From NCBI GenBank assembly GCA_002633005.1, contig NMRA01000021.1, forward strand, positions 753,685 to 817,684: 64,000 nucleotides of DNA. Reading direction: 5' to 3'. Shown in pieces: positions 3,201-54,137 of this stretch. The DNA is from Phoronis australis (lineage: Eukaryota; Animalia; Phoronida). Within the stretch, counting starts at the first letter, position 1; each line of letters starts with the position of its first letter. The notes beneath the pieces are model-generated. The model did no database searches, was not told where the DNA came from, and saw only the letters and a list, made by a program, of their open reading frames with translations. The position numbers and the translations under genes are program-made.

Positions 3201-3280
3201 GTTACCCCTATCGTGCTTCATTCATCGGGTAAGACAGCACCTCATGGCACGTGGCCTGACGCAAGATGCAGCTTCCGGGT

Positions 3281-4190: not shown

Positions 4191-7100
4191 ACTATAATCA
4201 GGTTCGAAAGAAGTTAATCCCCTCGAAACAATGAACCCATATGATCTTAATTGAAAAATACAAGTGAGAGGTGGGCGGAAGGTATGAAATTACGGAATTC
4301 ATGGCTCCGAAAGTTTACAAGTCGACAAATAAATAATTCCGAAGATAAACAAAAGTCTGAAAGAATATTAGTTGTTTTACTATCAGTTTGATAGGGCTGT
4401 TTTTAGAAACGTTTTTTTTTGCCTGATAGGGTATTTTAAAAAAAATCATTCAATGTTACATAACTTACCTTCAGGCTTGCGAACCTTCGGAGTATCGAGC
4501 TCCATCTTATTTATACTACTGCATTATGACTTGCACGCTACTTTAAATTTCCTTCTTAATTTTAGTCTTCGGTTGTTATTTTTCAGTCTTTCATGCTTCT
4601 TCTTCCGTCTTGGTTTTCTGTGAGTAGGATCGTATCGTTGTGGCGTGGGCATGGTAAGTAAATAAACGAAAACGTTCATTAATAAAATTTACAAACAATC
4701 GATAAATCAACAATTATTTTCAATTTGCCATTCGGAAACTAATTAAAAAACTCTCATCCCTGCCACGGTAGTAATCGATCACGGGAACCACTGTTCAGCT
4801 CCATTTGATCTTGGCATTTAGAGAGGAATTCAAATAACACCACTCAGCATGCATTTTGTGACCTTGAACGTCGTTTGGATTTATTCATGCTGTATTTCTT
4901 GATATGTTAGGATTGGTGTTAGTATGTTAGTGGAATTGTTAGTTGGGATTAAAAAGAGTGTTAGCGTCAACGCGAATGTACCAGCAAGACAGTAACAAAC
5001 GCTTAGTGCAAGCAAATGGTAATGGATATGATGAATGGAGAGCTTTATCTATTCGAAGTACATGTGCGACATCGCAACCCACACACTAATACTTGAGTAC
5101 AACCCAATTATCTGGACACCATACATTTGTCACAGGTGGGTAACTGTAACTGTAAGTGCCAGCCAGACAAAAATGTTATCAAGAACGAAAGTTACACACC
5201 TCTATCGCCCTTCATGTATCGGGTAAGACAAGATCTCATGGTGCACGCCCTCACGTAAGAGGCAACTCCCGGGATTTTTTACCTTTCCGACTGTGGTGTC
5301 ATTTTGTGTTGGTGGTTCAGCGGCATCTTGGCCGGGTGCACTGCCAGTTGTGGCGAGGTCCTGTATGACCATAGTAAAAACGTCAACATTTCTCTAACTT
5401 TGAAGGTTCAAAATCGTGCACATTTCCCCAACTTTGAAGTTTTATATCTCAGAAATAGCTGTCCATATTTATGTAAAACATCCAAATCCAAGGACTTAAA
5501 CATCGTTTACAAAACGAATTCAAAATAAAATCATGATATTTTAGAACATTAATAGTTTTTTTTATTACGTCTTGGAACATTTTCATCAAATGAAATTTGA
5601 ACGTGTTATCGATACCGTTGTTTTGCTATTACTGTGCTTTTCTTTTCTTTTTCGCTAAATTTTACATAAGGGAAATATTCTTGTGAGGCAATCATTATGA
5701 ATATCAGACAATAAAAACCGAAATTTCAAATTTTACTTTGGTTTCTAGTTTCCTATAATATAAACATTTAAGGAGTTAAAATATTTGATTTTATAAAAAA
5801 TTTAGCTAAAATCGAATATTTGGCAATAAAGTCCAATCAACCTTCGAGGACGAATTTAACATACATGAGCCGAGGTGAGTGTATTTCATATTGTGAAGTA
5901 TACACTGGAAGAAATTTGGTTAGGAAAGTAAAAAGATGCCCCAGCAAACTTGTAACTGAAGTGTAAAACATTTTAAATGCTTTTTTTCTTATGAAAGTTG
6001 AACGGTAATACACTTTTTAACTCTGTTGTCAGTCGTATTAGTGGTACTGCAAGAACTTTTTGATGCACTGTAAGCCGTCGTGACGTCGTGGTCCTGTATG
6101 GTCCCGTAAGGATGATAAACCTTATATTGATGATGTCAACCAATCCACTTTCTGTCACTTGCTTTGATTTTTAGTGTCAATCTTCCAAAATAAAAGCAGA
6201 AACCAACTGAAAAAACTTACACTTCCTTCCTCATAAATTGCACGTTGTGGTCCTTGACGGGTGGCCTTCTCCAAAGGTGCTGTGTAACTTGCTAAAAGCG
6301 TAGGTCACGCTTGCCAGTTTAGCAGAATTTGTTAGACGTTTTCAAAATTCCCTCCAGACTTTTGAGGGTTGGCAATAAGTTACAAAGCATTATTTTGTTT
6401 CAGAGAACTGGATGGGGAAAGTCGTTTTTAGTATGTGTAAGTAAGCCAAAACCGAGTTTGGTATCCTTTTAATGATAAACAAAGCCCAGCTATTTAACAA
6501 ATGACATAGTCACTCAAAAAATACAGCAATTAAGACTAAATGTTGTTCACTTCCGAGAAGTGTATTTTATATTGAAAAGATCTCCCAGTTATACAATTAC
6601 CAACGCAATTTTCAGAGACTGCACTAAAACCAGTTGTGAAACCGTGTACTTGAATAAAGACGTATTCCTGAAGTAGATTTTTCATTTCGCTTTTCCAAAT
6701 AAAACAAGTGATTTATCAAGTTTTGATGGCTCAAATGAATACACACATGTAGTCAAAACTGGTAACTGCCAGGATACTGATTTACAGCTGAACGGCACCA
6801 TATCTTTGGCCCTGGTGTCATTCGTGCTAGTGGTCCTTCTGCACTTTTGGTACACTGTAACTGCTCGCGACATCAGGTGCGGTGGGTAAATGGTACACTA
6901 GTCAGCCAAAGTCCACTAGTTCGACGACGTGCCAAGTCGCTAAAAATTGCACAATGAGAAGTGATCAACCTTATATGACCTGAATTGAAAACTTCAAGTG
7001 AGAAAGAATGTGTACAGAGTTTATATGAAATTAAGTATTCATGAGTCGCAAGGTTTGCAAGTCTTAAAATCCATAAATCTGAAGACTTATCCACACAATT

Positions 7101-7801
7101 AAGATAACCCACCGAAGGTTATAAATTTGAACTTTCATGACACTAGGTTCCGAACAGTGTTTTTGAGCAAAACGCTCAGGGATTTATTTGCACACGGCTG
7201 CTTGAAACTAGTTCTTCGAAGAGCCCGTGCCTCTCAAAACGGGATCCAAACATGAAGTTGGGCGATTCACTGAGTTGCTGTAGTTATTTACATGTTCGAA
7301 GTATGGTTTATCGCCGCCAAAATTTTGCTGCTTGGCTGTGGTTGACTTTGAATCGCTGGTTTCTGGCATCATAGACCTTCGGACTAGTTTCGAACTAACT
7401 AGGTTTTTCTTTCTGTCGGATTTGTGAACCTTCGGCCTTATAATGCCTTTTATTCATTTGTGGTATTATTAGAGTTCGAACTTGTGAACCTTTGGGGTAT
7501 CGAGCTGTACACTATCTATACTAATACAGTATGACACGCAAGCAACGTTAGATTACATAAACTCCCTGTTAGATTATCTTCTTAATTTTCCTCTTCCGCC
7601 TTTCTTCCGTCTTGGTTATCCGTGGATCACAGCTTGTCGTTTATGTATGGGTATGGCGTGCAAATAGACAAAAAACGTGCAGTAATGAAATTTAAAGACA
7701 GTCGGCAAATCAACTATTGTTTTCAAGTTGACACTTTGAGATTAATTGAAAAATCTACCAAGGCAGTTATCGATCACGGGAACCATTGTTCTGATCCATA
7801 T

Positions 7802-8486
7802 GTTGGGGGTCATCCTGATGTGTTCCCGTTTTATGCATATCGGGATTCTACATATGTACGTGTCCCGGGTTCGGTATGACCACGTTTCGTTGCATCGGAC
7901 GGAGGTCTATGTGTCCTGGTGTGGTAGCTGTGATTGTCCCCCTGCAGAGAATGTCCTAGCTGCATGTATTTGAATGCCGGTGTACTGGCACGTTAACCAG
8001 TGGATTAGGCGGATGCTTCATCCAAATACATGCAAACCGGACAATTTCTCCAGGGGGGCAATGGCTACTTTCACACCGAGTTCTATGTGTTATTGGTCAG
8101 TGTTCGATGAGCCAAGAAAATTAACATGCCCAAGTTCGCCGTTTGCGACCTATCCGAAATCTCGAAAACTAAAGGCGCATTTTCAAGAAGTGAGCTAGCA
8201 TTCCAAAATTCCAGGGGGTATTGCTTTATCTGACAACGACCAGAATCCAATGCAACTAAGGAGAATGCATAAAAATAACACGTTACTTTATTACTTGTTG
8301 AACTTATGTCCTAAATCAGGATCGAAAAGCACCCGACAACTGTCATGTGGGCCTAAATGGCAAGCGTTGCTAAAACTTGCACACTCGTTCGCTTAGCGTC
8401 TGGACTATTACGCAAAGCACCGGGACACAAAAACCCGGACAGGTAGGATTCGGAGTCTATAAAACGGGACGCATGTTAGGGCCCCA
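7802..8486. mobile_element. MITE-like DNA transposon remnant with imperfect terminal inverted repeats
   Basis: Left end GGGGTCATCCTGATGTGTTCCCGTTTTAT versus reverse complement of the right end GGGGCCCTAACATGCGTCCCGTTTTAT. Absent from the other array copies. Confidence 0.55.
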
Positions 8487-8610
8487 GTTATTATGTTAGT
8501 ACAAATTTTAGTCGGGATTAGAAAGAGTATTAAATTCAGCAAGTCAAGTAACAAACATCTAATGCAAACTGATGATAATACATTTGATAGATGGATAGAT
8601 ATATCCATTT

Positions 8611-8933
8611 AATAATAATAGTAATAATAATAATAAATAATAATAATAATAATATCACTTACTGTACATCGTAGGCTTGGCTTACTCATACAGAAATACA
8701 TAAATTCAAATGTATATTGAGAGTATTTACACGGAGTGCAGGTGCAGCCTCCCGTTCAGTATCGCTAGGACCTAGCTTAAAAGCAAGACTTTGCGAGATT
8801 ACGCGAGATATTGCCGTGTATTTTAAATAAGAGCACGTGACCTTGACTAGCTTTTGGTTAGGTCCTAGCGTAGGTCCTAGCGTCTACTGAACGCGCGCCA
8901 GTTCTTCTCTTAAAGCCATAGTCTTCTCAGTGA
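8611..8933. mobile_element. Short insertion flanked by a 10-bp direct repeat (ATATCCATTT), starting with (AAT)n
   Basis: ATATCCATTT at 8601-8610 and 8934-8943; array homology resumes immediately after. Confidence 0.6.
8747..8899. mobile_element. ~150-bp MITE (GTTCAGTA.CGCTAGGACCT family), nested copy
   Basis: Inverted ends GTTCAGTATCGCTAGGACCT / AGGTCCTAGCGTCTACTGAAC; related copies at 50364-50470 and 51665-51809. Confidence 0.7.
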
Positions 8934-10099
8934 ATATCCATTTGAATAAATGTGCGTCGTCACGACCCGAACACTAATGTATGAGTATAACCCAAAGTAC
9001 AACTACTGTAAAATACAGCCGACACTTAAAACATATACGTATTACAACTACCTGTACACCAAACAGTTGCCACAGGTGGAGAACTGTAACAGCAAGCAGC
9101 CAGACAAAAATGTAATTAATGACAGAAGTTACGCACCTGTATCGTCCTTCATGTATCGGGTAAGACATATCTGATTCATCTCCTCACGGTGCGCGCTTTC
9201 AAGGAAATGGCGGTAATCTGAAACAGCAGGCCGACCCACTCAAAGGTAAACATTCAAGGGTCATGCTATTACTTCTCAGGAGGGGTTATTGCGCTTTCCA
9301 ATGAACTACGAACACACCAAGTAATCGAAGTGCAACAACCAGGTAACCCCGTCATTACAAAATCCAGATAAATAAACTCGCCTTTTAGAGATACTGAATA
9401 CCAAAAGAGTGTTCTCAATGGAAAATCGTGCCACATATGTATAGAAACTTTCAAAAACTAAACCGCATGGGGGCTACGACGAAATTAGATGCAGGTCGTC
9501 CGTCAGTCTCGATTCGTGAACAGAGATTTGCCTTTGGGGTCGTGGTCTCTCAAACGGATAAGTCGGTGTTTTTTGTTTCCTGTCTGTCAACTTTCGATTC
9601 AGGAACTCGTATTGCTTTCCACTATCTGGCTCTGCCCGCCCGTGATTAACGCGAACCCTACCGGTCGTAGCATGAGAATATCCATAGCCAAAAGTGATAT
9701 GTAAAGTGTTGCTTTAAATCTGTCTAAATAGTAAAGTAAATTTGTACAACTGTTTTCTACTTAACCTATTAAAACGAGTCTTAAAATCAAAATTAACATC
9801 AACAGACACACGTGTACAACCTGGGAAGCTCATTTATATTGAGAAGCAAATTGTTGAAGGCACTGTATTCATAAGTCTTCACACAGGTCATATGTTGGTC
9901 ACATCACGTGAAGACGTGTCAAACATGTAAATTGTTACTGTGGCACAATTAATTTTCTATGCAATTTACAAAAAAACAGCGAGTTTAACATTATGTAAAA
10001 TTTGAGCATTTGTTTCAATACTACATTTGTCCAAGGTTTCATTGCAGAGCACGTGTCGGATCGAGTCTACACAGTCATTTGTCTTTGAAAGTTTATTAT

Positions 10100-16010: not shown

Positions 16011-17720
16011 TTCACGATACAGTTCTCATATTGGGTCCTGATAAGAACAAAAATATGATCAATAAAATGATATAGAAGAAATTAAAATAATTGGAATGAA
16101 ATTAAAATTTACTTTTTCATTGTCTTTTGGTAGCCTGCAATGTAACATTTTCTTGATTTTAGTTTTAGTGAACCTTGAATTAAAAATTCAGCAGGCAAAC
16201 GCGATTGCAATTGCCGAGAAAGGGTCATTGCAACAATCCAGAATTCCTCTTCAACTTTGGTTTTGTAGTAGCAGTCGGGTGCAATATCAAATGAGTTTAT
16301 ACTCAGGGTACTCAAACAAAAGGGGGTATAGCCGATATCACTGCCAAGTCAGAGAGCATTGAAAGGTAACCCAAACCCGATTACCATCACAAGACCTAAA
16401 GCTCTGGAGTAACAAGGTGTCAGGGGTCAGGCTATCCTCATCCAGGGCCATGGGTTCGACAGGAAGAGGAAATCTAATGACTGTGTAACTGAGGGGCGTG
16501 TTGTCTAATTTTGCCGATTGATCGATAGGTAGCGCTTGATGATACCAATGTGAACAAAAGCGACCATACAAAAAGAAACAACAGAATTAGATTTGTCATG
16601 CATAACTCTATTAAACGGACAACCGGAGATAAACAGTGCAAATTCTCGCGGTCAGTCCTGTGGAATCTCACTTGAATTTTACGGTAACAAAAATAAGTAC
16701 CCTTGATATCATCATTATCGCCAATCCTATTTTAATCCATTCCACACATTTTTTCCATTTTCAGAAGGATAGATTTCATCTTTTTAAACAGAGTTGTTAA
16801 GCTTTCGCGCATTAAGACAAAGGTTGTTGCCACAGCCAGTCAACAACTTCTCAAAAATACAAAATGGGCAAACCTTGCTCACTTGACAAATATCGGTTTG
16901 ATGTAATGAAAATTGATGAACGTTCTTACTAAAGAAGGCAGAAAAGATATGGAATTGGAATAGTGGATCTTCATAACCATCTTGTGTAAGTTAAATGATG
17001 TTTTTAAAACATATCCTTCCCAGTTACACCTATGGAAAATTTGTTACGTGTTAATTTAAATTTATAAGTGACGGCGTGTTCAGTTAGTTAAGGCACGTTT
17101 GCTTACAACTTCAATAACAGACGTGCTTCTGAAAAAACATTGGGAAACAACACTTTTGCAAAACAAAAAATATTGTTCAATAACCATTTTAATCAAAGAT
17201 GAAACCAACTACACTGAAATAAACTAAAATATGTCAATTTTAAAAACTCTAACGCAAGTAAAATTTCACCAGAGTCTATTGGTAACTAAAGTCTACGTAC
17301 CCCTGGGTTGTGTTTTAGCATAGACCCTGCATAGGTGAATCTTACCCGCATTGCCGATTTATGAAAGACGAGTGTTCTTTGGATACCGTATGGAAAGAAA
17401 ATTCTTCAACCCGAGTGGACTGAATAGACTAATATTTCAACCGTCACCGTGCGTGTCTTTCTGATTGCAGTCGACTGTGCCTCAGTTCACAACAAAAAGC
17501 ACTTCTCCACGGGCTGCAGAAACTCGAGCCTCACTTTCAGCACAAAACGAAGAAGTGCTGCGACAGGCAGCTCCTAGACTAGATATGATGAACCACACAT
17601 CATTCTTATCGACGACCGTTTTACTGCGCTGACAAGTTTTTTTCTGAGCAGTGGGCAGTGGCATTGGCACGTTTAGTCAACCATTCAGTTGGTTCTTAGG
17701 GATACTATTTAACACTTTAC

Positions 17721-17920
17721 CTGGCCTCAGTAGCACCGCACGGATCGCCCTCTTCACCTGCGCACACTCTGCAACAAGCACACAAAGGTCCCCAGACGTC
17801 CTCACATCCCGGTTTCAACGCAGGGCACTTTTGCGTTTGGGTTTTACTACATTCACACGTCAGGGCGTCTGTACCTGACAGTGCCAAGGCGGCCAAAAGT
17901 AAAATAAGGTAGAACTGCAT
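17721..17920 (-). CDS. Perlustrin-like secreted single-IGFBP-domain protein, gene A, exon 1 (signal peptide plus IGFBP N-domain); spliced product 123 aa
   Basis: MQFYLILLLAALALSGTDA-LTCECSKTQTQKCPALKPGCEDVWGPLCACCRVCAGEEGDPCGATEAR; CxCCxxC IGFBP motif; donor AG|gtaaag in phase 2 matches exon 2; 12 Cys in the spliced mature domain. Confidence 0.92.
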
Positions 17921-18012
17921 TACCTCGGTCTAAAGCAATGGCTGGATGTTAGACCGTTACGTTACGTCTTAGACAGAATTAATATCAATGTAGGAAATTG
18001 TTATAGAGGTGA

Positions 18013-20599: not shown

Positions 20600-20960
20600 A
20601 ATATACCGCCAAATTCGTACATTTTCTATGAACGAAATCTGTGATCTTGCGCATAAGCCGTGACGTCACTATTCACTAGCGACAAACAGCAAAAGTTTTA
20701 CTTCCGGCATGTCCATCGTCTGCTAATCATGGTCGGCTGTTGTGCGGTCGGGTGCCAAAAAGTACTCACGATACCAACAGTTGTATTATTGGAAGACTTT
20801 GAACAGCGTTTCAATGCCGAAATTGTTTTTTCTTTCGTAGTGCTGGACAGTAAAATAGAGGCAAGAATTTCCCGTCACAATACACTAACCGGAAACTGAA
20901 ATTGGTAATTTAGGAGAGAAGCGCCTCCTCTAGGATACTACGCAAGGAAATGTCGGAGTT
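20600..20960 (+). mobile_element. Non-autonomous THAP-type (P-like) element fragment
   Basis: The MVGCCAVGCQ start (20729) and upstream ACGAAATCTGTGA.CTTGCGCA.AAGCC match the element at 40264-41086. Its continuation matches ~38250-38315 in reverse. Confidence 0.55.
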
Positions 20961-21724
20961 GCGAGTCTGTTGTCTATAATCTATGTTGTCATTGATAGTG
21001 GCTCTGACTTTATGCGTTAACAACTGCATGAAAAAAAATCGGTAATTATGAAGTAGGACCGTAGTACGTCGAAGCGCCAATGAAGCCTACCTGCATCACC
21101 ATGCAAACCCAGCTTTTGATTTAGATCACTTACCGTTGGTTTCAATTTGTTCTTAGTCAAATTCAAGGGGATTTCAGGGCTTTGCCAGAGATGAGAGATC
21201 GCCATTGCCCAAGTCCAGGTTTTACGAGTTGTCTAGTTCCAGTGTCACATCGTGTCATTTTATGCGCCGAGTATGCATGGCGCTGATCAGCGTCATCTTG
21301 GGGCTTGGGGACGAGGCTGAGTTCACATATATGTGCTCGAAACACGTTGAGACCAATTAGGTAGTGATAAGTGGTTTAAATAAGAAGCCGCTTTATGTCG
21401 CTTTCCATGAAAAAAACTCTGAACTCAAACATTAGCGTTCAGTGAGTGCTAGAATCTTGCGGGTTGTCGCACGGTATTGCCACGCATTATAAAAGATGCC
21501 TGTGACCGTATTATTATGCAAATTTTCACTTGCCCGTGACCTTTGACCTCAAGGTATTGTAAGAGCTAGTACTACAACTGGACCTGCTTAACCTTGAAGT
21601 GAAATTATTTTTTCAACAGTCATTACTTTTCAAAATTTTTCAAAGCTATCGTCATATCGACTGAATTTTAGTACTGATAAGACTAGATGAAACTTGAGAA
21701 ATGTCATTTACGTCAGTAACACCA

Positions 21725-25465: not shown

Positions 25466-26585
25466 GATCGTGCTCATACCATCATGGCAATAGCGAATAC
25501 GAATGAGTCAGGTTTACTGTGGCCTTTGTCAGTGATTATTGAGTGTCTATTTTGCTTAATAGTTGTCCAGTTCTGGCTCAAAATAATGCTCGTTTTCTGA
25601 TCTGCTGTGTTCCGCCATTGCAATTTATTGTCAAGTGACCAAACGTCTTCCACCCATTGCATCATTTGGCGGGAAACATGGAAATGAATTATTTTTCTTC
25701 AAAATAAAAAATCTCGAATATTTGGTATAAAAAGTGTTCACTTAGTTAGTTTTTAAGGTATTCATTTCATATTAGCTAACTGAAACCTCGAAAATTACAA
25801 AAATGTGTTGTGGGAACTATTCAAACACAGAGACATTTACTTTTTTAAACTACGATAGTTTGTGAAATCAAAAACATCAAAACAAAATTCACCTCCCCTC
25901 CCCAAATGGCTGTAGTTTTATACACCTTCTTCGCACCACGACTGCTGTGTTGTCTAACAAGGGTATCAGACGGTAACATATTACAGAGGTGCCTCTGAAA
26001 AACCCTTAGAAACAACGCTTTTGAAAAGTAAAGCGCATTTATTTTTCAACCACCATTATAATCTAACGTAAGATCAAATACACTGAAGGCAACTAATAAA
26101 AAAATGTCAAATTTAAGAAACCTAAAGAATCTTTGGGCCTTAAAGAAGTAGAATTTCACCTGAGTCTAAATGTAACTTAAGTCTGCGTACACCAGGGTTG
26201 TGTTTTAGCACAGGCCCTGTGTAATTGAATCTTGCCCGCTTTGCCGCTTTATGATAGACGAGTGCCCATTCGATGCTATACAGAAAGAAAACTTTTAACT
26301 CGAGTGGACACTTTGACATTCGTCTTACACAACTTTCTGATTGCAAACGACTGTGCACAAAATACCTCAGGCCAGAACGAAACGTAAAGGTGCTTCGCCT
26401 CTTGCTGGAGAAACTTGAAGTTCACTTTCAGCACAAAACGAAAAACAGCTGCATCAGCCAGTTTCTGGACCACAAGGAGGACCACACGTCATCCTAAGCG
26501 AGGACCGTTCTACTGCCAAGTTCAAATGTATCTGAGCAGTGACAATGACACGTTCAGTCAACATAACAGTTGGTTCATACTTTAC

Positions 26586-26779
26586 CTGGCCTCATGAGCG
26601 CTGCATGGATCACCCTCTTCCCCCGCGCACACTTTACAGCAAGCACACAAGGGTCCCCAGACGACCTGACATCCCGGTCTCAACGCAGGGCATTTTTGCG
26701 TTTTTCTACAATTACATGACAGGGCGTCTGTACCAGGCAGTGCCACGGCGGCCAAAAGTAAAATAAAGTAGAACTGCAT
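26586..26779 (-). CDS. Perlustrin-like single-IGFBP-domain protein, gene B, exon 1; spliced product 123 aa
   Basis: MQFYFILLLAAVALPGTDA-LSCNCRKTQKCPALRPGCQVVWGPLCACCKVCAGEEGDPCSAHEAR; donor AG|gtaaag, phase 2. Confidence 0.92.
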
Positions 26780-26866
26780 TACACCAGTGTGAAGCAATAT
26801 CGAGATATTGTACCGTTGCAGCTTAGACAAAATGGATTTTAATGTAGGAAACTGTTTCGGAGATGG

Positions 26867-26955
26867 TTTTATATAGAATGTTGTTCAAATTAGCTAATAA
26901 CATAATAGCAGGTGTGGTAGGCAGGGTGTGATTGTAATTTCTCGTAATAGCCATA
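26867..26955 (-). promoter_or_regulatory. Gene B core promoter: TATATAAAA plus conserved TGTAATT-N6-AATAGCCATA motif
   Basis: TATA at 26875-26867, about 90 bp upstream of the ATG; motif at 26933-26955. Confidence 0.6.
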
Positions 26956-27039
26956 AATTAATAATTAAGTTGTAATTAAAAAGATCTTGTTATCGAGGTC
27001 CAATTATGTCAGGAATCTAGTATATATAAGGGTGGTGCC

Positions 27040-27627
27040 AAAACTCCTAAAAATTTCAGAGGAATTCCCCTTATGCAAGTCACTGCCAAAATATTCGAAA
27101 AAATATTATGCCAGCCACTTCAAAAATGGCTGGAAAGAGAAAGCGCAATTAGTGTGTCTCAAGCTCAGTTTAGGAAAGGGCACAGTACGGTGGATCACAT
27201 GTTTGCTTTATGTACGTTGATAATTAAATACTTGCCACGAGAGAAAAGTGAATTCTATTGTGCCTTCGCGGATTTTAAAGCCACTTTCGACAGTATCTAT
27301 AGAAGTACATTATATTTTAAATTAAAGAACAATCGCATAGAAAGTAAGATGTGTAGGTTAATCAAAGCAATGTACGCTGAAGTAAAAGCGTGCGTGAGAT
27401 TGAATAATGGGAGCTATGCGGAGTTTTTTAATTGTCAGAATGGTCTGAAACAAGGGTCTAGAGCAAGAATTACAATATGATGGCGGTGAATAAATTTCCA
27501 TGAGATCAGCTGAATTACTGCATCTGCTGTTTGCTGATGATTTGGCTTTATTTTCCTATAGGGTTAAAGGACTGCAGAAAAAAATTAATAGTATATATAT
27601 ACATACATTCATACATACATACATACT

Positions 27628-31276: not shown

Positions 31277-31845
31277 TTAAATGCAAACCAACGGGGTCAG
31301 CTTGTGGTGTCCAGATTCTACTTCACTTAAGTCACCAAATGTCAACTTCGTTGCAGGAAGTAATTCTTTTCGCATAATGATCATCTTATCGTATCTCCAA
31401 ACACTGTCGTTTGCATCACATGAACATTTTAAGCGAGGATTATCGCAATAAGAAAAGCGACCACAATCACACACGCATGAGTACCCTTTGCCTCGACCGA
31501 ACCACCGTGCTAAATGCTTGCGTTTGGTGTGCAAAACGGAATTGTAGCACGTGTAGAAAATCTCTTGATAGCACGAAGTTGCAGAACGTATCAATGACAA
31601 AACTTGAGGAAGAGAAACCGTGTATGTAACATTTCGTGAATAGCATTCGGAATGCTAGCAGTTGATCGGAATGGTTATGTTCTTTTCGGTATCATGTCGG
31701 ACAATGGTGACGCAACTTCCTGTGGCAACATCAAACTGACAATCCACTACGAAAGGGTATTCTCCTGCGGCGCCATTAGGATCGATTATGTATTTACCGC
31801 TGTCGTAACAACCAAGATCCGCCCAACCTTTGCAAGAGGCAGGCA
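31277..31845 (-). pseudogene. CASPR/neurexin-IV-type fibrinogen-like domain exon with an in-frame stop and a mutated acceptor
   Basis: One frame: PASCKGWADLGCYDSGKYIIDPNGAAGEYPFVVDC...TIVRHDTE...INC*HSECYSRNVTY...SATSCYQEIFYTC...CDCG...CSCDANDSVWRYD...LLPATKLTFGD...KLTPLVCI*. TAG at 31657-31655; acceptor reads ttttgttttcAA instead of AG; the usual YWGG segment is missing. Confidence 0.8.
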
Positions 31846-36600: not shown

Positions 36601-38482
36601 GAAGAATTATAGTTGGCCATGAAAACATAAACATTTACAATTAATTCAAGGCGTGAGAACATAACGTTTTATATTATTTGATTACTGACTCGCTCGTGAG
36701 GCTTCTGTTTGGTCTTCTGGGTGTAGGATGTTTTCGCCAGTGTTTCTCAGCCCTAAAAAAGTCGTAAGCACACGTTTTTAGATGCGGTGCAAAATCAGGA
36801 TGGTACGTGAGCTACATCTGCGCTTCTCCAAAAATTTGTTTCACTTGCGGAATTTCGTGGCAGAAAACAAAAGCGTCAATCGTTTCCATTATCGTGCAGC
36901 TACATGTAGCTGACACCATTACAAGTCATTCCAACGGTTTTCGGAACTAACCACGTGTTCCATTCTTTGTGCACGTTCACGGAGTATCTCTATTATTTCT
37001 TGATCGGTGTATATCTGAGAAACCTAACGATCGACCTGTGAAGTCTTCGGCGGATGAGCACTTGTTTAAGTCGGGATTGCGAGTTGCCCAGACCTTGACG
37101 TTTATGTTGTGCGTTCTGCCGGTTTCAAAATGAATTATTCTCATCCTAACCAATGCTTCTGTAAAAGTGAAACAAAGTCTTTCTCATTAGATACAATTTG
37201 TAATGTTTTTGAGTGTTCGTAAGTGCAAATGTTTTGAGAAGCCAGCAATGAATAAATCACTGTGTTACCGGCTTTAGATGCAATAAACTAACTGACCTGG
37301 CACCGAGGCCGTGTGAGCGCATGCTAATTCAGTGTTTGCTGACAGAAAACTGTTGTGAAACAATGATAACTCGACTTTATATCCTATGGTCAGATGTTAG
37401 GGGAGTATTTATTTAGATATTCAAATACATTATTTGAATCATTGTTACTGTAAAACTTTTGCCCTGGCGGTTCTGTGGAAGGGTAGCCTGACTTCGCGGC
37501 TCCCACGAGCTAGCGAGTAGATTTGTAGTTTCGCAGCTAATTCACCAAAATAATCATGTACACGCTTTTTCTTTGGCTCACTAGCATAGTCTTTTCGTGA
37601 CTGGATGTTTAGTTTCCAACTTTGGCCGGTTTATGTACGTGATGTCTTCAGTCTGGCCGCGGTGGGCCTGGTCGGGTTCCGAGCCACTGGGCGGGATAGC
37701 AAGTGTTTTGTGTATTTAGAACTGAAAAAATCGCAAGTCAAAAAGTAAACACGCAGCTATGCTCTCCTGTCTGTATTTCACGAACGCATAATTTGGTTTT
37801 ATCACCGACAGACCCCAATTTCCCGCGACCGGCATTGGTAAATTGGCCTACCGAATTTTGTAGGCTACGGTAAGTTCAAATACCTAAAAATCGGTAACAG
37901 TGGAATAAAATAACATGTTTGTTCAATGACTCGATTTGTTTTTAAGGTTTTACATCGAAATTTGATGATTTATTGCTGTAAAACGAAGAATTCAAGCGAT
38001 AAGCTGACACCAGTAAGCGTGTTGTCAACTGCTGAACAGACTGCATTCGCACCTCTGACGTCACTGTTTTTTCGGTGGCATCATAGATTATAGACAACAG
38101 ATTCGCAACTCCGGCATTTTCTTACGAGCTGAGTTGAACTCTCCTGACCTATCTGCTGCAGTTTCCGGTCAGTTTTAATTTGACGAGAAATACCTGCATC
38201 TACTTTACTGTCCAAAACAGCGAAAAAAACATTAATTTATATTAATTTCGGTATTGAAACGCTTTTCAAAGTCTTTCAATAGTAGAAGTGTTGGTATTGT
38301 GAGTACTTTTGGCAATGCTACTGGTAATTAATTTCAAAATTCAAACTTCGGTTCCGACCCTTTATGTCGTCTGCTTGCCCAATAGCAGCATAGTTATCGG
38401 ACAGTTTTTGATTTACGGTTCACATAGGCCTACTGAGAAAACTACGAAAGCGTGTTTATAAATCAACATTCTCAAGTGAGCA

Positions 38483-38520
38483 GTTCTTCTGGGCAGTGTT
38501 GAGTGGCCCTTAAAAGGGCC
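38483..38520 (-). terminator. Histone 3'-end stem-loop 2 (38505-38520) plus HDE-like purine tract (38483-38490)
   Basis: Minus strand: ccaac-GGCCCT-TTTA-AGGGCC-actca-acactgccc-AGAAGAAC. Matches the 16-nt SLBP-binding consensus GGYYYU-UYUN-ARRRCC with typical A/C-rich flanks. Confidence 0.8.
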
Positions 38521-38545
38521 GTTGGTTGTAGGTATAGCGTGAAAT

Positions 38546-38561
38546 GGTTCTTAAAAGAACC
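38546..38561 (-). terminator. Histone 3'-end stem-loop 1
   Basis: Minus strand: tcaac-GGTTCT-TTTA-AGAACC-attt, 10 nt after the PHD ORF stop codon; compensatory changes relative to stem-loop 2. Confidence 0.75.
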
Positions 38562-38571
38562 GTTGAATAAT

Positions 38572-38889
38572 TCAACATAAATCACACAGTATGCCATGCT
38601 CACTCAAGTACTGAAGGTCCTCTTCATTAAAGTTTTCATCTGGAAAGGTTGGATGAAAACAGAGGAGATGACAATATCGATGACAGTTGTAACACCTTAG
38701 ATAGATATCACCGTTCACCAACGTTGTCACGAACCCTGCATCGTTCAGTTCTTGTTCCTGTATCCACAAATAATCCTGAACTGTAGGAAAAAAATGACAA
38801 ACAACACAACGAATCAAATTTCGAAAATCATCGCCTTCGTACGATTCCGTGTTGCTGTCACCAGACTGATGTTCTTCTCCAACGTCCAT
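38572..38889 (-). CDS. Intronless stand-alone PHD-type (C4HC3) zinc-finger protein, 105 aa, acidic N-terminus
   Basis: MDVGEEHQSGDSNTESYEGDDFRNLIR-CVVC-(34 aa)-CYNCHRYCHLLC-(24 aa)-CDLC*: CxxC...CxxCxxxxHxxC...CxxC ligand spacing. The ORF is intact and ends at the last Cys. Confidence 0.75.
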   Translation of the reverse strand: MDVGEEHQSGDSNTESYEGDDFRNLIRCVVCHFFPTVQDYLWIQEQELNDAGFVTTLVNGDIYLRCYNCHRYCHLLCFHPTFPDENFNEEDLQYLSEHGILCDLC

Positions 38890-38996
38890 CGTAAAAAATC
38901 GACGTTGCAAGTGATGGAAACTTGTCTACGCTCTCGTCCTTTGTTTCTAACCTTTAACCCATTTTTTAATAAAGGGGTGTACTGTTTTTGGCTCAT
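38814..38996 (-). CDS. Basic 60-aa upstream ORF overlapping the PHD ORF
   Basis: First ATG downstream of the presumed transcription start (caacATGag); contains T_TTT_TTA in phase for a -1 shift into the PHD frame. No recognisable domain. Confidence 0.3.
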   Translation of the reverse strand: MSQKQYTPLLKNGLKVRNKGRERRQVSITCNVDFLRWTLEKNISLVTATRNRTKAMIFEI

Positions 38997-39047
38997 GTTG
39001 ATAGTGCATAATCTATGGTTTTACAATGTATTAATAGTGTTAAATGC

Positions 39048-39215
39048 ATATATATGAACTGGTCTCATTGAGGTGCACAGCAAATAAATTAACTATAACA
39101 AATTAAAGTTTTGAAAATATAAAGAGCAGTAACAGACTCCCTAAAAATTAGGCTTGTTTTCGAAAGGTTTGCGCCATTGGTGATCCGATTGGTTCAATCG
39201 CTTGCGGCGGGAAAA
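39048..39215 (-). promoter_or_regulatory. Cell-cycle-type promoter of the PHD gene: E2F site, two CCAAT boxes, TATA
   Basis: Minus strand: TTTCCCGC at 39214-39207, CCAAT at 39192-39188 and 39180-39176, TATATA at ~39054-39049. Confidence 0.5.
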
Positions 39216-39386
39216 TTGATAGACCCAGTTATTGTGCGCGTGTACACTGTATCAATGCTTTGTATCTTATTCTTATTTGTCTAATCTGTTGATACAGTAA
39301 ATTTCCTTATTTATGCCCATCCTGATTTAACCCCGACTTGAGCTCCTTGGGTTTTACCATATTGGGGCTGTCCAGGGACTCACGTG

Positions 39387-39529
39387 CATGCGCGCACCCA
39401 GTCTTCAAAATGGGGGGCTCGAATTCCTGACGTTATGGAACTGTTGTTAACAAGAGAGCGGGCAGACCTTTTTGCCCACTTTGCCAAATGGGGGGGGCTC
39501 GAACCCCCCCCCTCTGAGTGGCGCGCATG
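39387..39529. mobile_element. MITE with CATGCGCGC(C)AC TIR and 5-bp TSD ACGTG (hAT5-like)
   Basis: ACGTG|CATGCGCGCAC...GTGGCGCGCATG|ACGTG. Confidence 0.7.
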
Positions 39530-39808
39530 ACGTGGTGCTTACTCGAATGAGTTTCATTTTAGCGGCTATTTCCAATTGTGTAGGTGAAGTAAATTAACAA
39601 AGTGGATGATTATCATCACCGGTATTTCATCATTAGTATTTTTGTCGGCCTCTCAAGTTTTCCGTGGCTAGGGATTGTCACATCTGTAAGGTAGACGTGT
39701 TTCAGTGAACCTCCATGTTTGTGGCGTTATTTATACCTGACCAAACTTTGAAAAAGAAGCCCGCGTTTAAACCAGGAGCTGCATTGGGTGCAATTTGTGT
39801 AGACGTTT

Positions 39809-39965
39809 CATGCGCGCACCCAGCCTCTAATACGGGGGCTCGAATCTCTGGCAAAGTGGACCTTTTGCTAACAAAAAGCGTGAGAACTAAAATAAAAAAC
39901 GGGGTGCTGCCGTATTGTGGACTTTCGTCTCTTTCTCTTGGACTTTTCCCCTGGGTGCGCGCATG
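39809..39965. mobile_element. MITE of the same family, 15-bp perfect TIR and 5-bp TSD CGTTT
   Basis: CGTTT|CATGCGCGCACCCAG...CTGGGTGCGCGCATG|CGTTT; a third diverged copy lies at ~42989-43189. Confidence 0.75.
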
Positions 39966-40263
39966 CGTTTGTCTACGTTGCTAGTTTTTATAAAGGTGGG
40001 CCTGTCTGTAGCCAACTACGGTAAATTCATAAAAGGTCACGTGCAGTGCAACTCAAGTTCATTACAAATTAAAAATCCGAACTTTCAAACCGTTTGATCT
40101 GAGTTGACATCTCAAATCAAAATTATGAAAATGCCACATAAAAGTATGAAATTGAAAATTAGCACACGTCAGCTTCACGTCCCTACCACCCCCTTTATCT
40201 TGCTTGCTACCTCTTAGGGTTCATTTCCCTTGCTTCCGAGGTTTTTCGTTATTCTGGTATTTT

Positions 40264-41086
40264 CATAGACTGCAGCGTACTTGGCTAAGATGGTTCAAGT
40301 TTTGTGCGGCATACAGTCGACATAAATAATTGAGTATGTAACCTGCTGTTGAATTGCGGGATAGATTTTGACAGGTCCAGGTATTTATTTCTGAAGTATT
40401 AATGTAATCTTTATTTATGTTAAAGGTTTTACTAGCGTCCTATTTATTTGTACACGAATGTGAATTTGTTGAAATCGCTGATCCAAATCCTGGCCAAATG
40501 TGCGCATTATGCTGAGACCAACCGTCTGATCAGGGCCACCGAAGAGTAATTTGGTTAATTCGCTCACTAGACTATGGCTGAAGGTCCTCGTAAGGACATG
40601 AGTTCACCAGTCACTACCATTGGAAGAAATTTAGCGGACATTTTTCGTCAAAAAGTTTACCAGATAGTTTTCATCAAAATGGAGAAAAGAAAAATGGATT
40701 TGTGAAGACAGGATTAAGTAGTAGGCCTACCAGAGCCTCTTAAAAAACACCCATCTTCGAAGTGACGTGAACAAATGTACAAGTTTTTTTTTGGAAGAAC
40801 AACTTCCATTCACGTCGACGCGAGAACATAACTTTTTCTCCCACAGCGGATTTTGGGGTCTCCGTACACTATGGAAGCTAACGCCTCTGCATTTCGCCTG
40901 CGTAGCCAAACAACCGGCCACACAGCAGCCGACCATGATTAGCAGACGACGTACTTGCCGGAAATTACACCAGATAATTTAGCCAGGTGTCGCCAGTGAA
41001 TAATGACGTAAGGGCTTGTGCGCAAGCTCACAGATTTCGTCCATTGAAAGTATACGGAGTTGGCGGTCCATGTACTATAGTCTATG
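40264..41086 (-). mobile_element. P-element-like non-autonomous transposon with frameshifted THAP domain
   Basis: Inverted termini CATAGACT...GTAC.TGG; MVGCCVAGCLATQAKCRGVSFHS...W...(frameshift)YICSRHFEDGCF at 40936-40740. Confidence 0.65.
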
Positions 41087-41632
41087 GTGGCATTCTCTTT
41101 CATAGACATCAGTAAACCTGAAAGGTTTTGGAAGTTTTTGAGCAATAAAGACTGCAATAAGAAATCACACCTCTCTAATTTCAAGAAGTAGAAGATTGGC
41201 AGCGAAATATTTTGTTTAGCGTCGTCCTATTTTGGCATTTGGCAGGAACAACCTTTCAGCTAACATTCTGCTCTGGCTCACACACGCAAGAAATGTTCCG
41301 TACCGAAAATGACGCCTTTGTTACGATTGATAGGTTATTAGAAACAAACTGTTCATTCCAAATTACAACATTTATGAATACGAAATTAATATATTAAATG
41401 TCATACGTTCGGTGATGGAAATAAACCAATTTTCAATTATATGGTCTCTGTATTTCTGGAGGTCGTATTAGCCCAACTCAATTTGGCTAATTATATACGT
41501 TGCTCAACATGCGTGGTAATAACTGTGGGTTATTATACCTCGATTTGTCATAATCAAACTAATTTAAACGACGACAAAATTTATCGTACACGTACATGCA
41601 AATTTATAATTAAACCACAAACTATGAGTATG

Positions 41633-41814
41633 TACCGCATTTCCAGGAATATAAGGCCACCTCTTTGTAGTAGAATATGCCATTATACTCGAAGACTAGG
41701 CCATGGCCTTGTAGTCTGTGTCATTTGCAACTCTGGCGTGAGCAAAAGCATTAATTCGAATATAAAGTTTTTGCTCTATTTTTATTCAATATTTCTATAT
41801 CCGAAATAACGGTA
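41633..41814. mobile_element. pogo/Tigger-like MITE
   Basis: TACCGCATTTCCAGGAATATA...TATATCCGAAATAACGGTA inverted ends with TA flanks. Confidence 0.5.
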
Positions 41815-44799
41815 TTACCTTATAATCGAGTACAAGGCCGTTGCCTCACAGTTTAGGTCTTTTGCAGTTTGAAGTGTTCTTAAAAACGCCTGTAAAGTCA
41901 TGGCCTTATGTTCTAGGTAATGTGGTATACATGCCACCACATACATGTACATATGGTATATAATGAGACAGGCTGTTTCAGTTTTATATAAGTGAGAATA
42001 ATTCATTTTGAAACAGAACGCACAATAATAATTGTCTACGTGGCAACTCGCAATCCCGTGAAACGCCTTCTTGGAGAAGCGCAGATGTGTCTCATGGACC
42101 ATCCTGAAGTCGGTCACAGCGATAGCAAAAATTTTATAGTTACCTAAGATCTGCGACTTATGACCTAAATACGTCACAGTGTAACAAGTAGCGTCACCTT
42201 CTGGAAGGCGCTCAAATGCAGCATAATAATGTGGATGTCTGTAATGCCAGTGTGTCCCCTGGTGCTTACAAAATACGTTGTTTTGCTTGCCTAAAGATAA
42301 GGAGAGGTAATTGTATATTCATTATATTTTCCAAACTACTATTGGCAAGTGCTGATCGGAGAACAGGAGTCATTACTGCAGTAGAACAATAACAGCATCA
42401 GGCCTACCTATTAGGGATAGTTACTAGTAGTTGACAATACTGAGCCCCACAGCACGGGCGTATGAGACTCTTTCGGTAGTGGCTGCACATCTTCTGCCAG
42501 GAATGTAACAAAATTGAGATGGAGTTGTATCAGCTGTGTTTGGTTAAAGAAGAGTAGTCTGTGTGTAGTATACATTTCAGGTTACAGGGTCAGACCCAGT
42601 GCTCTGGTCAGCTGGCCTTGTTTACTGTGTGAAAACTGGGGTGAGATTTGTGCGAGTTGGGTGCAGAGTATGCACAGATAAGAACTAGCAGGGAAATCCT
42701 TGGAAGAGCTACATAACCTGCGATTGTGTAGTCGCCATATCCAAGAGGAACAATTCACTTATCAATTAAAATAAAAAAACTGTTGATTTAGTATAAACAA
42801 TCTGATTTGATGTGTTAGTATCAAGTTCCCAGGCACTACTCTGCATTATCACAGGGTATGCGTGCCTCAGGGTATCTTGCTGAAGAATATGTACCCTAAA
42901 CAGGGATTATTGAGTCAACTTCTTTCTTAGAACAGTAAAACAATCTTCTTCTTTGATACATTCTGCTGTACCCACGCAGCTTGTTTTCCATGCCCGCATC
43001 CAGGGGGGTCTGGAGCTCGAACGAGCCCCCCTCTTTGGCGTAGTGGACAAAAAGGTTTGCCCCAGTGAAACAAAAACTCCAAAAAAGTAGAAAATGAGAG
43101 AAAAGTCCACTTCCACATATTTTCTTAGTCATAGGTACACATTCTCAAAAATTCGAGACCCCCATTTTTTAAGCTGGGTTAGCGTGCATGTACTTGCTAC
43201 GCTCCACAACCAATCAGAATGTGTCTCTTTCATACTAACTACTTGTGGAAATTGGTCTCATTTTTGTCTGGCAAAACTCTCTTTGAAGTATAACTTTTCA
43301 GGGGCATGTCTATGTGACATCAGAGTTGCTGTACTATTGTATTAGTCCTGGTGAAGACCCAAGCAGAGCGTGTTTAAATTGCAAAACTTAAAATTAAGGG
43401 CTACCGTGAACCTGTTAAACTATATGTTTTTTGATAACTTTGGGGATTCGCATTTACCCTGAGATACAGTTTGAGGTTAATGCCCAAAGAGTTGTATTGA
43501 TACCATTGTCTTCGTATGAAATGGTCAATAGGCATATAACATTGATTGATTAGTCGGAAGTAGACTAATTATATGCAGTATAAGTGGGAAAACTTTTTTT
43601 GGTAACGTTTTTATTGTACCCGATGGTGGTGTATGTTCCCTCGAACCACATACATGTATATTATCCCTGACAACTATTGGTATGTTGGCAAAATCAAATT
43701 GATTATTTTTAATATTGCAATTATTCCAGCACATTAGTACCGTAAAACTGCTAGGTCTCATAGCTGAGATATATGTATTGACATGTATTGTATAATGTTG
43801 TTTTCATACAATTTATAAATTGTGTGTTAAAATTAAAATGCTTGTAATGTCTTTTGAACTGATGTGTTACAAAGTTAGAATAAAAAATGATATTGATCCA
43901 CATGCTCTTATTTATTATTACTCTACTTTTGTTTATGTAGTGAGTATTATTTATTATTCATACTTATTTTATTCCGTGTCTTTCAGCAACAAGAACTATG
44001 ATATAAATATTACGTAATATATGATAAAATATTATGCTAAAATATTATATAAATTACTGTTGCATTTACTTGATTCTGTAACTAGAAAACCATGTGGAAA
44101 ATGTCATGCTATTGAATTCAGGCAGTTGCTTTCATACCAGTCATAGCCCTGGCAAAGTCTTAGTCAATTACAGTTAAATATTATAATAATTAAATATTAT
44201 CATAATTGCATAAACTTCCACGTAAATACAAATGATGTTTCCTCAAGATTGATATTGTATTGTATTGCTATGCTTACAAAGGAATCTGAAATTTTTTGTT
44301 ATTCATTTGAATGGCATTTGCTTTTCATTCTAGTTTTATCGCATCACAATAATTATCATATTGGCCATAACATCAACAAAAATTATGTTTTCCTCAAATA
44401 AATTATAAATCTAACTCATCAAAATTGGTTTTATGTCTAAAAAACCTGGTTTTTGTCCAAGTTAGTTGCAATCTTCACCACAGGCTCAGACCTGGTTTGA
44501 GGGTCTCCGAATACAACTTGGTCTCCCTCTAATAGGTGGCGATGTTCCAAAATGTGTGACACGGCAAATTACACTAGGGCGGCCATCTTGGGATATAGGA
44601 TCTTTGGCGATAGTCGATGTCTCACGTACTTCTTCGGTGCCAACGCCCGATAGATGTCGCTACAGTCCATGACACAATAATATAGGCCAAGACGATTAGT
44701 TTTCCTATCGTCTTTATTGAAATAACAAGGTACCTTACCTGGCACTGAACAGTTAGCTGCAGCCGCAGCCAATGTGCACTCCCAAAATATTAAAATCTA

Positions 44800-45222: not shown

Positions 45223-47140
45223 AATATACAAAAGTAAATAAAGTTTCTGTGCTCATCTGTAGGGCTTGTGATGTGAAATGACTCGAACTTTTCTTTATTT
45301 TCATACAGTTTTTGACAGAGTGAAGAAAGGGTGAAGAGTCCATTAACGTGTGCTCTGATAGGCAAAACCCTGTGAGCACTGTTCTGGGGTGCCTCCTTAC
45401 TGGTCGTCCAGTTGTATTTCGCCAAGAGATTTCCGGCATCATTCAAAAGCTGGCTTCTATGACCCTAAAAGGGCCTACTCAGGTCAGTGCATTGTGTGTG
45501 ACGGATATATCCGCCACGGGTAGCAGAGCAACCGTGACTGAGCTTATCGTTCGAAATGTCCAGAATTTTTTCGATTATTGCGACTGATGTATTTGTCCGT
45601 CAGTGGTAGGCTTACATGGTTTACAAAGAGTTGGACGCTGCTTGTCGAGGTGAAGTGCTAGTGCGTGCATAAAACCGTTAACCCAGCGTCCTATGTGTAT
45701 TAAAATTGGTCCCCATGTCTGTTGTAACAGTCCTATAATTTTTGTTCTATACGTTGGAGTTATGACGTCATGCACAGGTTTCTGTGTCCTTAACTGGGAA
45801 GTGGGTACATGAGAAGAACTGAGGTCGAGGTCAATAACTCTAGTGTCTGGCTATAAAGTCAAGAAGTCTCGAGCTTTGGCGGGATATCGCATATTTTCAA
45901 TGAGATCACGGGATTTTGACTAGACTTTTCTCGCCACAAGACAGTTATTGGACTCTGCTTAGATTTTGTCAGCGGCAGCACATTCAATTTTGCACGAGTA
46001 CATGGATTGTAGGTGTTTTCAATAAAATGCTCTTTTGTTATGTTCTCACACAGTTGGTAAATGCTAACTCGTTGGCGCGCACAACACACGGCGTGCCCCT
46101 TGCAACATTTTGTGCCTGCCAGTATGACACTCCAGTGGACTTTTCCTTGTTTTCAACTCAAAAAAGAGAATTTTGGTACATGTGAACATTTGAAGACTTT
46201 GTAATTTCATTTATTTTATGCGATTCCTCTTTGAAAATTTGTGGATTTAATTGAAATGACGTCAGTGATAATTTGTTTGCAGGATGCACCAACGATGTTT
46301 GAGGCTGTTTGTAAGAGGAATGGAAAAGCCTATTGATTGATTGATGACGTCGTAAAACTCACAAAGTTCTCGAAGACAAGCAAGAGCTCAGAACAAATAC
46401 CTGGGATATCATTATGTACAGTTGTATTTGCGCGTGACGATGAACTAGCCGTATATGGCTGCCTCTTCTTACTACGTGTGGGTAAACTTTAATGGCAGAT
46501 ATTCGTTTAACGCGATTTTCATATACAAAACCAAATTTCGAGTCGTTTTAAAAACAAGTATACCCATGTTTGCAAACTGTGACTACTCAGTGGTAGTCGA
46601 TTTTTGTACGTACATGTATCGGAGGTACGATATGATTCCAGAACCAGTGAATAATTTGAAGTACATGGTCTTGCAAAATTCGTAGGTCAGTAGTGGGCCC
46701 AGATGTCGCGTACCAGAGGTAGACTTTTGCACGTCGTATATTTTCACGGTCAGATAAATTCAACCATTTGACAACAGTACAACAAAAAAAAAACGTTGGT
46801 GTACGCCAATGAAGCCATTACAGCTTCGTTTATTAGTAAAGACTCACAGGTGGCGTCATCGCCAGATATGTGCAACATCAATTAACGTATTTTGGTACAC
46901 GCATATGTACATGTAGCTATAATAACACGACCTCGTCTTGCACCAAATTTCCTCTACCAACTTGTTCGTACCAGATCTGAAATCACAAAAAGTTCCTTCA
47001 GAACACAAGAATATCATTTTTGTCGATACGTCAGTCGATCAACGGGCTTATTTTGATTTACATCTGCAAAGCATTAAGAAGCGCAGGAACTGCACATGTA
47101 TAAGTACATGTATATGAATATGTATGTGAATATGTAGTCT

Positions 47141-53121: not shown

Positions 53122-53842
53122 ACATATATTTATCTTATTAAGAAACATCTGCAACAGTGTGCAGAAGGCTGCAACTGCAACACTTATACATTATATGGAG
53201 TAGACGTAACTCGATCAGACTAGAAGTGGCAGTTTCTCGGATTGGAAAGAACTGGCAATTCGCTATTGCTGCGACGCAAATAGCACGTGACAAGTCAACT
53301 CATTGGGGCTTGTCGCAAGCAATAAGCAGCTGTCAGGTTTTCCAAGACCAGGAATCAAAACCTGACTTGAGTACCGAACACGATGAGACGAATGTGGTAG
53401 GCTAAGCGTTAACTCGAACTTTACGTTAATTGACCAAAAGAAAGTTCATAGCAACTTTGCGTGCTACTTTGACAGTGAAGCCTTCTTCCGTTCATTCTGT
53501 CCCTAATCAGTTGCGTGATCCAGCAGTCTTTGCGGTCACCGAGTGATCAAATAGAAGATTTTTTTTCTTAACGTCAAATGACAATGTGAAAGATTTTCAA
53601 TTGATTGCCGGGATATGCTCTTCGATTTTAGCGAAAAGGGGCAACAATGTTTTGTAGTGATGCGACAAAAGACATGAATAAAGAAACTGCACCATCAGTA
53701 AACAAAACCACGTTGCGCAGTCATCAAACACTGAAAGCTCAACCGGAAAAGATCCGGGAAATACACTCGAACGAATAACACTAACTATGCAAAAGCGCAG
53801 ATCTCCGTCTCAAAATAAACGACATGTTTGACAATCAGTTAC

Positions 53843-54045
53843 CTGGGTTCTGTGCGATTACACGGGTCACCCTCCTCGCCAGCACACGCTTGACAGCAAG
53901 AACACAAGGGCATCATAACGACCTGACACCCTGGTCTCAACGTAGGACAGTTTCTGGTGCGATCTGGAGTACAGGGCTCGCACGACAGGGCGTCAATTAC
54001 TGGCAACGTCCCAGCAGCCAAAAGCAAAATTACACAGAACTGCAT
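53843..54045 (-). CDS. Perlustrin-like single-IGFBP-domain protein, gene C, exon 1
   Basis: MQFCVILLLAAGTLPVIDA-LSCEPCTPDRTRNCPTLRPGCQVVMMPLCSCCQACAGEEGDPCNRTEPR; donor AG|gtaact, phase 2. Confidence 0.92.
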
Positions 54046-54137
54046 TACGTCAGTCGGCGTGAAGATGTGCCGGGATATCAAAACGTTGCGCCTTGTAGAC
54101 AGTCTTGGCTTTGATGTAGTTAATTGGCATTATGGCG

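Follow-up and report, generated by a model that had tools for sequence, protein, structure and literature searches.

The window, a stretch of 64,000 nucleotides (64 kb) of the Phoronis australis contig NMRA01000021.1 that was analysed at its full length, contains on its minus strand a short PHD-like zinc-finger gene followed by two histone-type stem-loops and a purine tract. The gene is carried by an element with terminal inverted repeats and a target-site duplication, which we call a P-superfamily-like DNA transposon. The features are listed in Table 1.

Table 1. Features of the finger gene, its flanks and its carrier element (positions are those of the window).
Feature	Position	Strand	Basis
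Left target-site duplication, GTGGCAT	38075-38081	+	Identical to right copy
Non-autonomous P-superfamily-like DNA transposon, 3,005 bp, carries the finger gene	38082-41086	.	Terminal inverted repeats, 7-bp target-site duplication, read and contig ends
Terminal inverted repeat, CATAGATTATAG	38082-38093	+	11/12 identical to other end
Purine tract AGAAGAAC, candidate histone downstream element (HDE)	38483-38490	-	Position and partial U7-box pairing
Histone-type stem-loop 2, GGCCCT-TTTA-AGGGCC, then ACTCA	38505-38520	-	Rfam 34.8 bits, E=2.4e-6
Histone-type stem-loop 1, GGTTCT-TTTA-AGAACC, no purine tract behind	38546-38561	-	Rfam 22.8 bits, E=0.0037, consensus pattern, folding
Acidic PHD-like C4HC3 zinc-finger ORF, 105 aa, intronless	38572-38889	-	ORF translation, weak PHD matches
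Upstream ORF, 60 aa, from the ATG at 38996, overlaps main ORF out of frame	38814-38996	-	ORF list
Candidate promoter motifs: TTTCCCGC (39214), CCAAT (39192 and 39180), TATATA (39054)	39049-39214	-	Motif match, weak
Nested MITE-like repeat, located upstream of promoter region, inverted ends of 16 bp	39386-39966	.	Inverted ends
Decayed THAP-domain ORF, frameshift and stops	40700-40936	-	Pfam THAP E=0.086, 14.1 bits, cut-off 23.9; MxxCCxxxC, W and CSRHF across two frames
Terminal inverted repeat, CATAGACTATAG	41075-41086	-	11/12 identical to other end
Right target-site duplication, GTGGCAT	41087-41093	+	Identical to left copy
Internally deleted short copy of the element, no gene or hairpins; THAP start fused to far end	20605-20985	+	Joint also in reads and contig

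The finger gene and its flanks

An earlier note on this DNA had described an intact, intronless 105-aa ORF with C4HC3 spacing, and we found the ORF where the note had placed it. The reading frame is continuous, and 0 RNA joints are listed in 38400-39120 in 2/2 RNA runs. Its ligands follow the order C4HC3 (C28-x2-C31-x34-C66-x2-C69-x4-H74-x2-C77-x24-C102-x2-C105), in which the second and third cysteine are separated by 34 residues, a longer spacer than that of the usual PHD finger. The note had named the protein a PHD finger; the ligand order and the best matches agree with that name, but the Pfam PHD model (PF00628) gives 10.1 bits (E=0.88), below its curated cut-off of 24. In a PDB search with the C-terminal 52 residues, five of the seven matches (E 0.09-2.9) were PHD-finger chains, which we take to be the PHD fingers of 1wev, BAZ2A, KMT2D and KMT2C. 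The ten best family matches in the Atlas all belong to the PHD family or clan, with scores below 0.9, which is lead level. The ORF shares with PHD fingers the C4HC3 order and differs from them in that it falls below the Pfam cut-off, stands alone, is acidic (20 D/E vs 4 K/R) and has lost the first CxxC in some of its relatives. The name PHD-like suits the protein, but its PHD identity is weak, and binding of a histone tail is only putative.

Histone identity of the protein was indicated by none of Pfam, PDB and Atlas. Single-sequence structure models, made with regard to the two-zinc cross-brace fold of PHD fingers, were of low confidence (pLDDT 53 and 55) with 0 fold matches, and a PDB search with a 3-sequence profile returned mostly unrelated rows. 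Word-based protein searches gave only two relatives, both unnamed singletons (P0001, 96%, and P0002, 68%), and 0 of 10 longer candidates scored. The first CxxC is missing in P0002 and apparently also in one expressed subfamily (32 X9 reads, read from a loose end). Three metagenome loci (L001-L003) were dismissed as chance, being weak partial matches with no hairpin. A search of viral contigs for relatives gave 0/3 and 0/100 candidate stretches.

Read on the minus strand, the ORF stop is followed after 10 nt by hairpin 1, after a further 25 nt by hairpin 2 and after 14 nt more by AGAAGAAC, the arrangement and spacing that the earlier note had given. Histone genes have the same spacing of stop, hairpin and tract. 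Both hairpins are perfect 6-4-6 structures, and the minimum-energy fold contains both (z = -4.2). The gathering score of the Rfam family (RF00032) is 34 bits, so that hairpin 2 lies above it and hairpin 1 below. They are the sole two matches in 64 kb to the histone consensus GGYYCTTTTHAGRRCC with at most one mismatch; 0.03 would be expected by chance, and none of 100 shuffled sequences had two. Four stem differences separate hairpin 1 from hairpin 2 and amount to two compensatory base pairs; the chance that four random changes spare all six pairs and the loop is 0.001-0.004. Within AGAAGAAC, at 15 nt after stem 2, GAAGA can pair with one G-U to the conserved U7 box, given in excerpts of PMC5054213 as UCUUU. 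As an HDE, the tract is a weak candidate.

The note had seen no AATAAA within about 250 nt of the stop, and the nearest one downstream is in fact 598 nt away. The variant hexamer TATAAA, 112 nt past the stop and altered in 23 of 60 X9 reads, could act as a weak poly(A) signal. Judged by the rules of histone mRNAs, the predicted RNA cut falls at about 38500. The window contains no histone ORF, as the note had stated: eleven short histone motifs searched in six frames gave one chance match, far from the locus. The note had itself raised the possibility that the flanks are a decayed histone gene. This was rejected, as no histone coding remnant is present in the flanks of the hairpins and the ends, size and content of the element also speak against it. 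A 20-nt hairpin pattern has two exact matches in the viral contigs, both inside coding regions and put down to chance. Elsewhere in the window, at 45461-45475 on the minus strand, a hairpin comes close to the histone type but has a loop of 3 nt and one G-U pair; it has no Rfam match and no ORF ending before it, and is probably due to chance.

The motifs of the histone-like promoter that the earlier note had proposed are present, but they are common in the window, upstream ATGs intervene and the TATA motif is not conserved, and the reading is weak. On both strands of the window CCAAT occurs 114 times and TATA[TA]A 101 times, and the E2F-type 8-mer has 5 occurrences. The distance from TATATA to the closer CCAAT is 126 nt and that to the ORF start 165 nt, with three ATGs in the latter interval (39009, 38996 and 38962). 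A loose end at 39022 (7 X9 reads, also in X1) shows that TATATA is apparently changed or lost in one subfamily.

Eight listed differences between copies fall in the 60-aa upstream ORF; 6 of them affect the third codon position and no more than 3 are synonymous, and selection is not significant. Copies also differ within it by indels at 38890 and 38924-38926. A TTTTTTA run at 38891-38897 on the minus strand is placed such that a -1 slip there would fuse this ORF to the finger. Against a programmed -1 frameshift are the indels between copies at TTTTTTA, the non-significant selection on the upstream ORF and one subfamily with its own start codon, in frame and a few codons further upstream (loose ends at 38883).

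The carrier element and its copies

The chance of an identical 7-mer flanking the element is about 8e-5. At the edge 38082, 267 and 235 reads from two RNA runs and four contigs end, with varied flanks (agreement 0.53-0.55), as is expected of the end of a mobile element. Outside the other end, at 41123-41926, depth is zero in three of four runs. The THAP-like ORF lies at the 5' end of the element, on the same strand as the finger gene, and is probably the start of a lost transposase or of a THAP gene. No transposase family, including the P-type DDE, was found in the 15 read-through frames of the element, and no autonomous partner of the 3,005-bp element in the data examined. THAP domains occur also in other transposon superfamilies.

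Like members of the P superfamily (P, 1360/Hoppel, Galileo), the element has terminal inverted repeats, short deleted derivatives and a putative N-terminal THAP domain, and its target duplication has the 7 bp known from 1360 and Galileo. Excerpts of PMC3698922 give the target duplication of the superfamily as 7 or 8 bp, and those of PMC3698922 and PMC4168063 describe a 7-bp duplication and an N-terminal THAP domain for 1360 and Galileo. The 7-bp duplication together with the putative THAP domain fits the P superfamily. Unlike the members of that superfamily, the present copy has no transposase core, and its placement comes from the ends and a weak THAP match. We call the element P-like and not a P member because the copy contains no transposase. 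The earlier note had suggested a gene of host or of virus or transposon origin, with Polinton-like cargo as an example; the transposon part of this was borne out, but instead of a Polinton or a single host gene there is a 3-kb, THAP-bearing, P-like element with a 7-bp duplication. Polinton and Academ readings of the carrier were rejected on the ends, size and content of the element. Academ elements have TAG ends and duplications of 3-4 or 9-10 bp, to which the present ends and 7-bp duplication do not fit.

The MITE-like repeat predates the spread of the subfamily, because a contig with 0 differences (39290-39477) crosses the edge of the repeat. The deletion joint of the short copy, from 38312 to 40914/40918, recurs in 17 X9 reads, 17 X10 reads and one X5 contig. 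At a distance, the 3-kb element is bracketed by a pair of inverted repeats that are 74-84% alike (36795-37206 and 41943-42107), which could represent the termini of an older element or a different repeat present in two copies.

The element family has many copies at 80-100% identity. For the region 38400-39120, two DNA runs gave 61 and 85 contigs, of which 30 and 27 are less than 90% alike. Near-identical X5 contigs cover 38145-38358, 38463-38758, 38896-39183, 39290-39477 and 40269-40522 at depths of 19-54. One X1 contig, 85% alike, runs gap-free from the ORF end across both hairpins to 38415, and an X6 contig links 38248-38457; divergent contigs thus form a chain from the ORF end through the hairpins to the element end, with no one piece covering all of it. 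The likeness of a divergent 749-nt X3 contig is confined to 38470-38685, from the C-terminal half of the ORF onwards, and ends 13 nt beyond the purine tract. In one divergent contig a gap of 79 nt takes out hairpin 2 together with the purine tract. At the loose ends 38453-38457 the cassette is joined to other downstream DNA (13 X9 reads and three X3 contigs), and the downstream DNA is also joined to other upstream DNA. Judging from these sequences, the finger gene is a family trait of the element and not of the copy at 38082-41086 alone. In X6, a run with a different species label, contigs are 98-99% alike to the promoter and leader (38814-39320); a close relative, contamination or transfer could each account for this likeness.

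Selection was counted on the best-supported 40 of 204 differences between copies, each change being classed singly, and 23 of the 40 fall in the ORF. Among these best 40 of 204, 18 of the 23 ORF differences are at third codon positions (p=1.3e-5), with shares of 13/16 in the C-terminal part and 5/7 in the N-terminal part, and 14 of the 23 are synonymous and 9 not, where 27% synonymous are expected (p=6.5e-4). This concentration at third codon positions indicates that the protein is under purifying selection among copies, which may act at the level of the element's lineage rather than of the host. In 38495-38592 there are 0 differences among the best 40 of 204, which is suggestive only. The 5' part of the ORF is unstable between copies, with indels at 38795, 38805, 38890 and 38924-38926 and a different start in one subfamily; the 1-nt deletion at 38795 is found in 15 of 94 X9 reads, two X1 contigs and four X3 contigs. 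One listed ORF change makes a stop codon if it stands alone. From the 5' indels, the altered start and the lost CxxC it follows that some copies are broken or shorter.

Transcription and the proposed processing of the RNA

The ORF is covered by reads in all three confirmed RNA runs (X9, X10 and X11), in both directions and at modest depth; the RNA runs were chosen by species label. The depth of reads with the first mate on the plus strand falls from the ORF to beyond hairpin 2 (57.7 to 25.8 in X9 and 4.4 to 0.5 in X11), whereas the opposite read direction is flat across the hairpins (38.1 to 39.0 in X9 and 7.3 to 6.6 in X11). The drop in one direction fits a sense transcript that ends near the hairpins, if the libraries have the usual stranded chemistry. 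In X9 the drop begins at about 38600, ahead of the hairpins, and could be caused by divergent copies ceasing to align. In 200-nt bins, X10 has a depth of 34.5 at 38510-38710 and of 45.8 at 38309-38509, with no drop. RNA read ends do not pile up at the hairpins, and reads run past both. The loose end at 38457 was considered as U7-like and discarded: it has this look in X9 but differs in X3 (agreement 0.74-0.79).

A multi-copy, P-like cargo gene with two canonical histone stem-loops suggests that its mRNA is likely to be made by the histone route. On balance we favour the explanation that the mRNA of the finger gene is cut by SLBP and U7 at hairpin 2, which would tie a transposon gene to S phase or oocytes. 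In this scheme SLBP would bind hairpin 2 of the mRNA and the AGAAGAAC tract would base-pair with the U7 snRNP; a cut near 38500 would then leave an RNA that bears no poly(A) tail. SLBP is active in S phase and in oocytes, and such processing would be expected to confine the mRNA to one or the other. As a speculation, the acidic PHD-like protein may bind a histone tail and aid the transposase of the family or its targeting, or may shield the element from silencing. Equally speculatively, a cut-and-paste element would gain copies if it moved during or after replication, and this would select for S-phase timing. Against histone-type processing are the three upstream ATGs and the 165-nt gap between TATATA and the ORF start, unlike the compact 5' end of histone genes.

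The hairpins might instead be inert passengers, if an ancestral element took up histone 3'-end DNA once or twice and its RNA is read through or polyadenylated. Transposons do take up host fragments, reads cross the hairpins both ways with no pile-up of ends, and one contig is without hairpin 2. Both stems are natural histone variants, so that two captures would mimic compensatory change. We nevertheless regard passive capture as unlikely, given that no histone coding remnant lies beside the hairpins, that hairpin 1 is only 10 nt behind the stop of a selected ORF and that the likeness to the divergent contig stops just beyond the purine tract.

A role of the hairpins without a U7 cut of the finger mRNA seems rather improbable to us: hairpin 2 has the flank of a histone end and, at the distance to be expected, a purine tract behind it, and there is no AATAAA for 598 nt. 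Under that explanation SLBP would sit on a longer polyadenylated RNA, or the hairpins would terminate read-through from the THAP ORF; it would account for reads that extend beyond 38500, for a hairpin 1 with no purine tract and a score below Rfam gathering, and for the imperfect match of AGAAGAAC to the U7 box. H2AFX makes both stem-loop and polyadenylated forms, according to excerpts of PMC4604434. It is also improbable, and slightly more so, that the gene and hairpins form a cassette of their own, either mobile or viral in nature or copied from a host gene, that is nested in the THAP element as one of several carriers. The loose ends at 38453-38457, which join the cassette to other DNA, and the short element copies without the cassette would be explained in this way, but the cassette is not bracketed by direct or inverted repeats of more than 8 nt, the viral contigs contain no relative, and divergent copies retain the link to the end of the element.

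Beyond SLBP/U7 cleavage at hairpin 2, we propose more tentatively that the transposon family has an accessory gene dedicated to reading chromatin, and that SLBP and U7 truly act on the mRNA of this gene. The gene would then be a timing helper that couples the element to replication or oogenesis, avoids poly(A) surveillance and possibly competes for SLBP. If true, this would break the rule that such ends are histone-only, and selfish DNA would be a route by which non-histone genes obtain histone-type ends.

Relation to known systems and other features of the window

The gene shares with metazoan replication-dependent histone genes the 6-4-6 hairpin, its flanks, a purine tract about 15 nt on, the lack of introns and the absence of a near AATAAA. 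It differs from them in its non-histone ORF, its two hairpins and its location inside a transposon. Histone mRNAs are called the only ones processed by the stem-loop and U7 route in excerpts of PMC5054213, and in HeLa cells SLBP bound only histone mRNAs and that of H2AFX, according to an excerpt of PMC4604434. A second gene with a histone-type end does not appear in the excerpted accounts of the P superfamily (PMC3698922 and PMC4168063). Excerpts of PMC13525598 and of bioRxiv 10.64898/2026.08.17.745202 contain nothing on non-histone ends. The earlier note knew of no described example, and likewise searches of the open-licence PMC and bioRxiv literature turned up no case of this end on a gene that is not a histone or that belongs to a transposon. 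A survey of histone 3'-end evolution by Davila Lopez and Samuelsson (2008) reportedly exists and may bear on prior art.

AcademHP, in which a PHD finger is fused to the transposase, and hAT elements with histone H3 cargo are mobile DNA with chromatin-related genes. In contrast to these, here a separate non-histone ORF has the histone RNA end. In sum, a well-formed histone 3'-end signal stands behind a PHD-like gene that is under selection and travels as cargo of a P-like transposon. This transposon setting suggests a new means by which mobile DNA may link itself to S phase. A selected, multi-copy and transcribed non-histone ORF with the full signal is a direct test for other clients of the pathway, and such messages would escape transcriptomes made by poly(A) selection.

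Apart from the element, the window contains a gene for a small, secreted and cysteine-rich protein in three dispersed copies on the minus strand (17700-17960, 26570-26884 and 53825-54060); the protein has a signal peptide and, at its N-terminus, a domain like that of IGFBP (for the copy at 26.6 kb, Pfam IGFBP gives E=1.3e-4). Roughly 800-9200 is occupied by tandem units in a degenerate state, which are about 1.9-2.0 kb long, 65-85% alike and without a long ORF. A 125-aa open frame at 31277-31654 on the minus strand, for which Pfam gave no family, presumably resembles an exon of a contactin-associated or fibrinogen-like protein. At 26980-27480 on the plus strand there is a reverse transcriptase fragment (Pfam RVT_1 E=8e-15), likely a LINE remnant.
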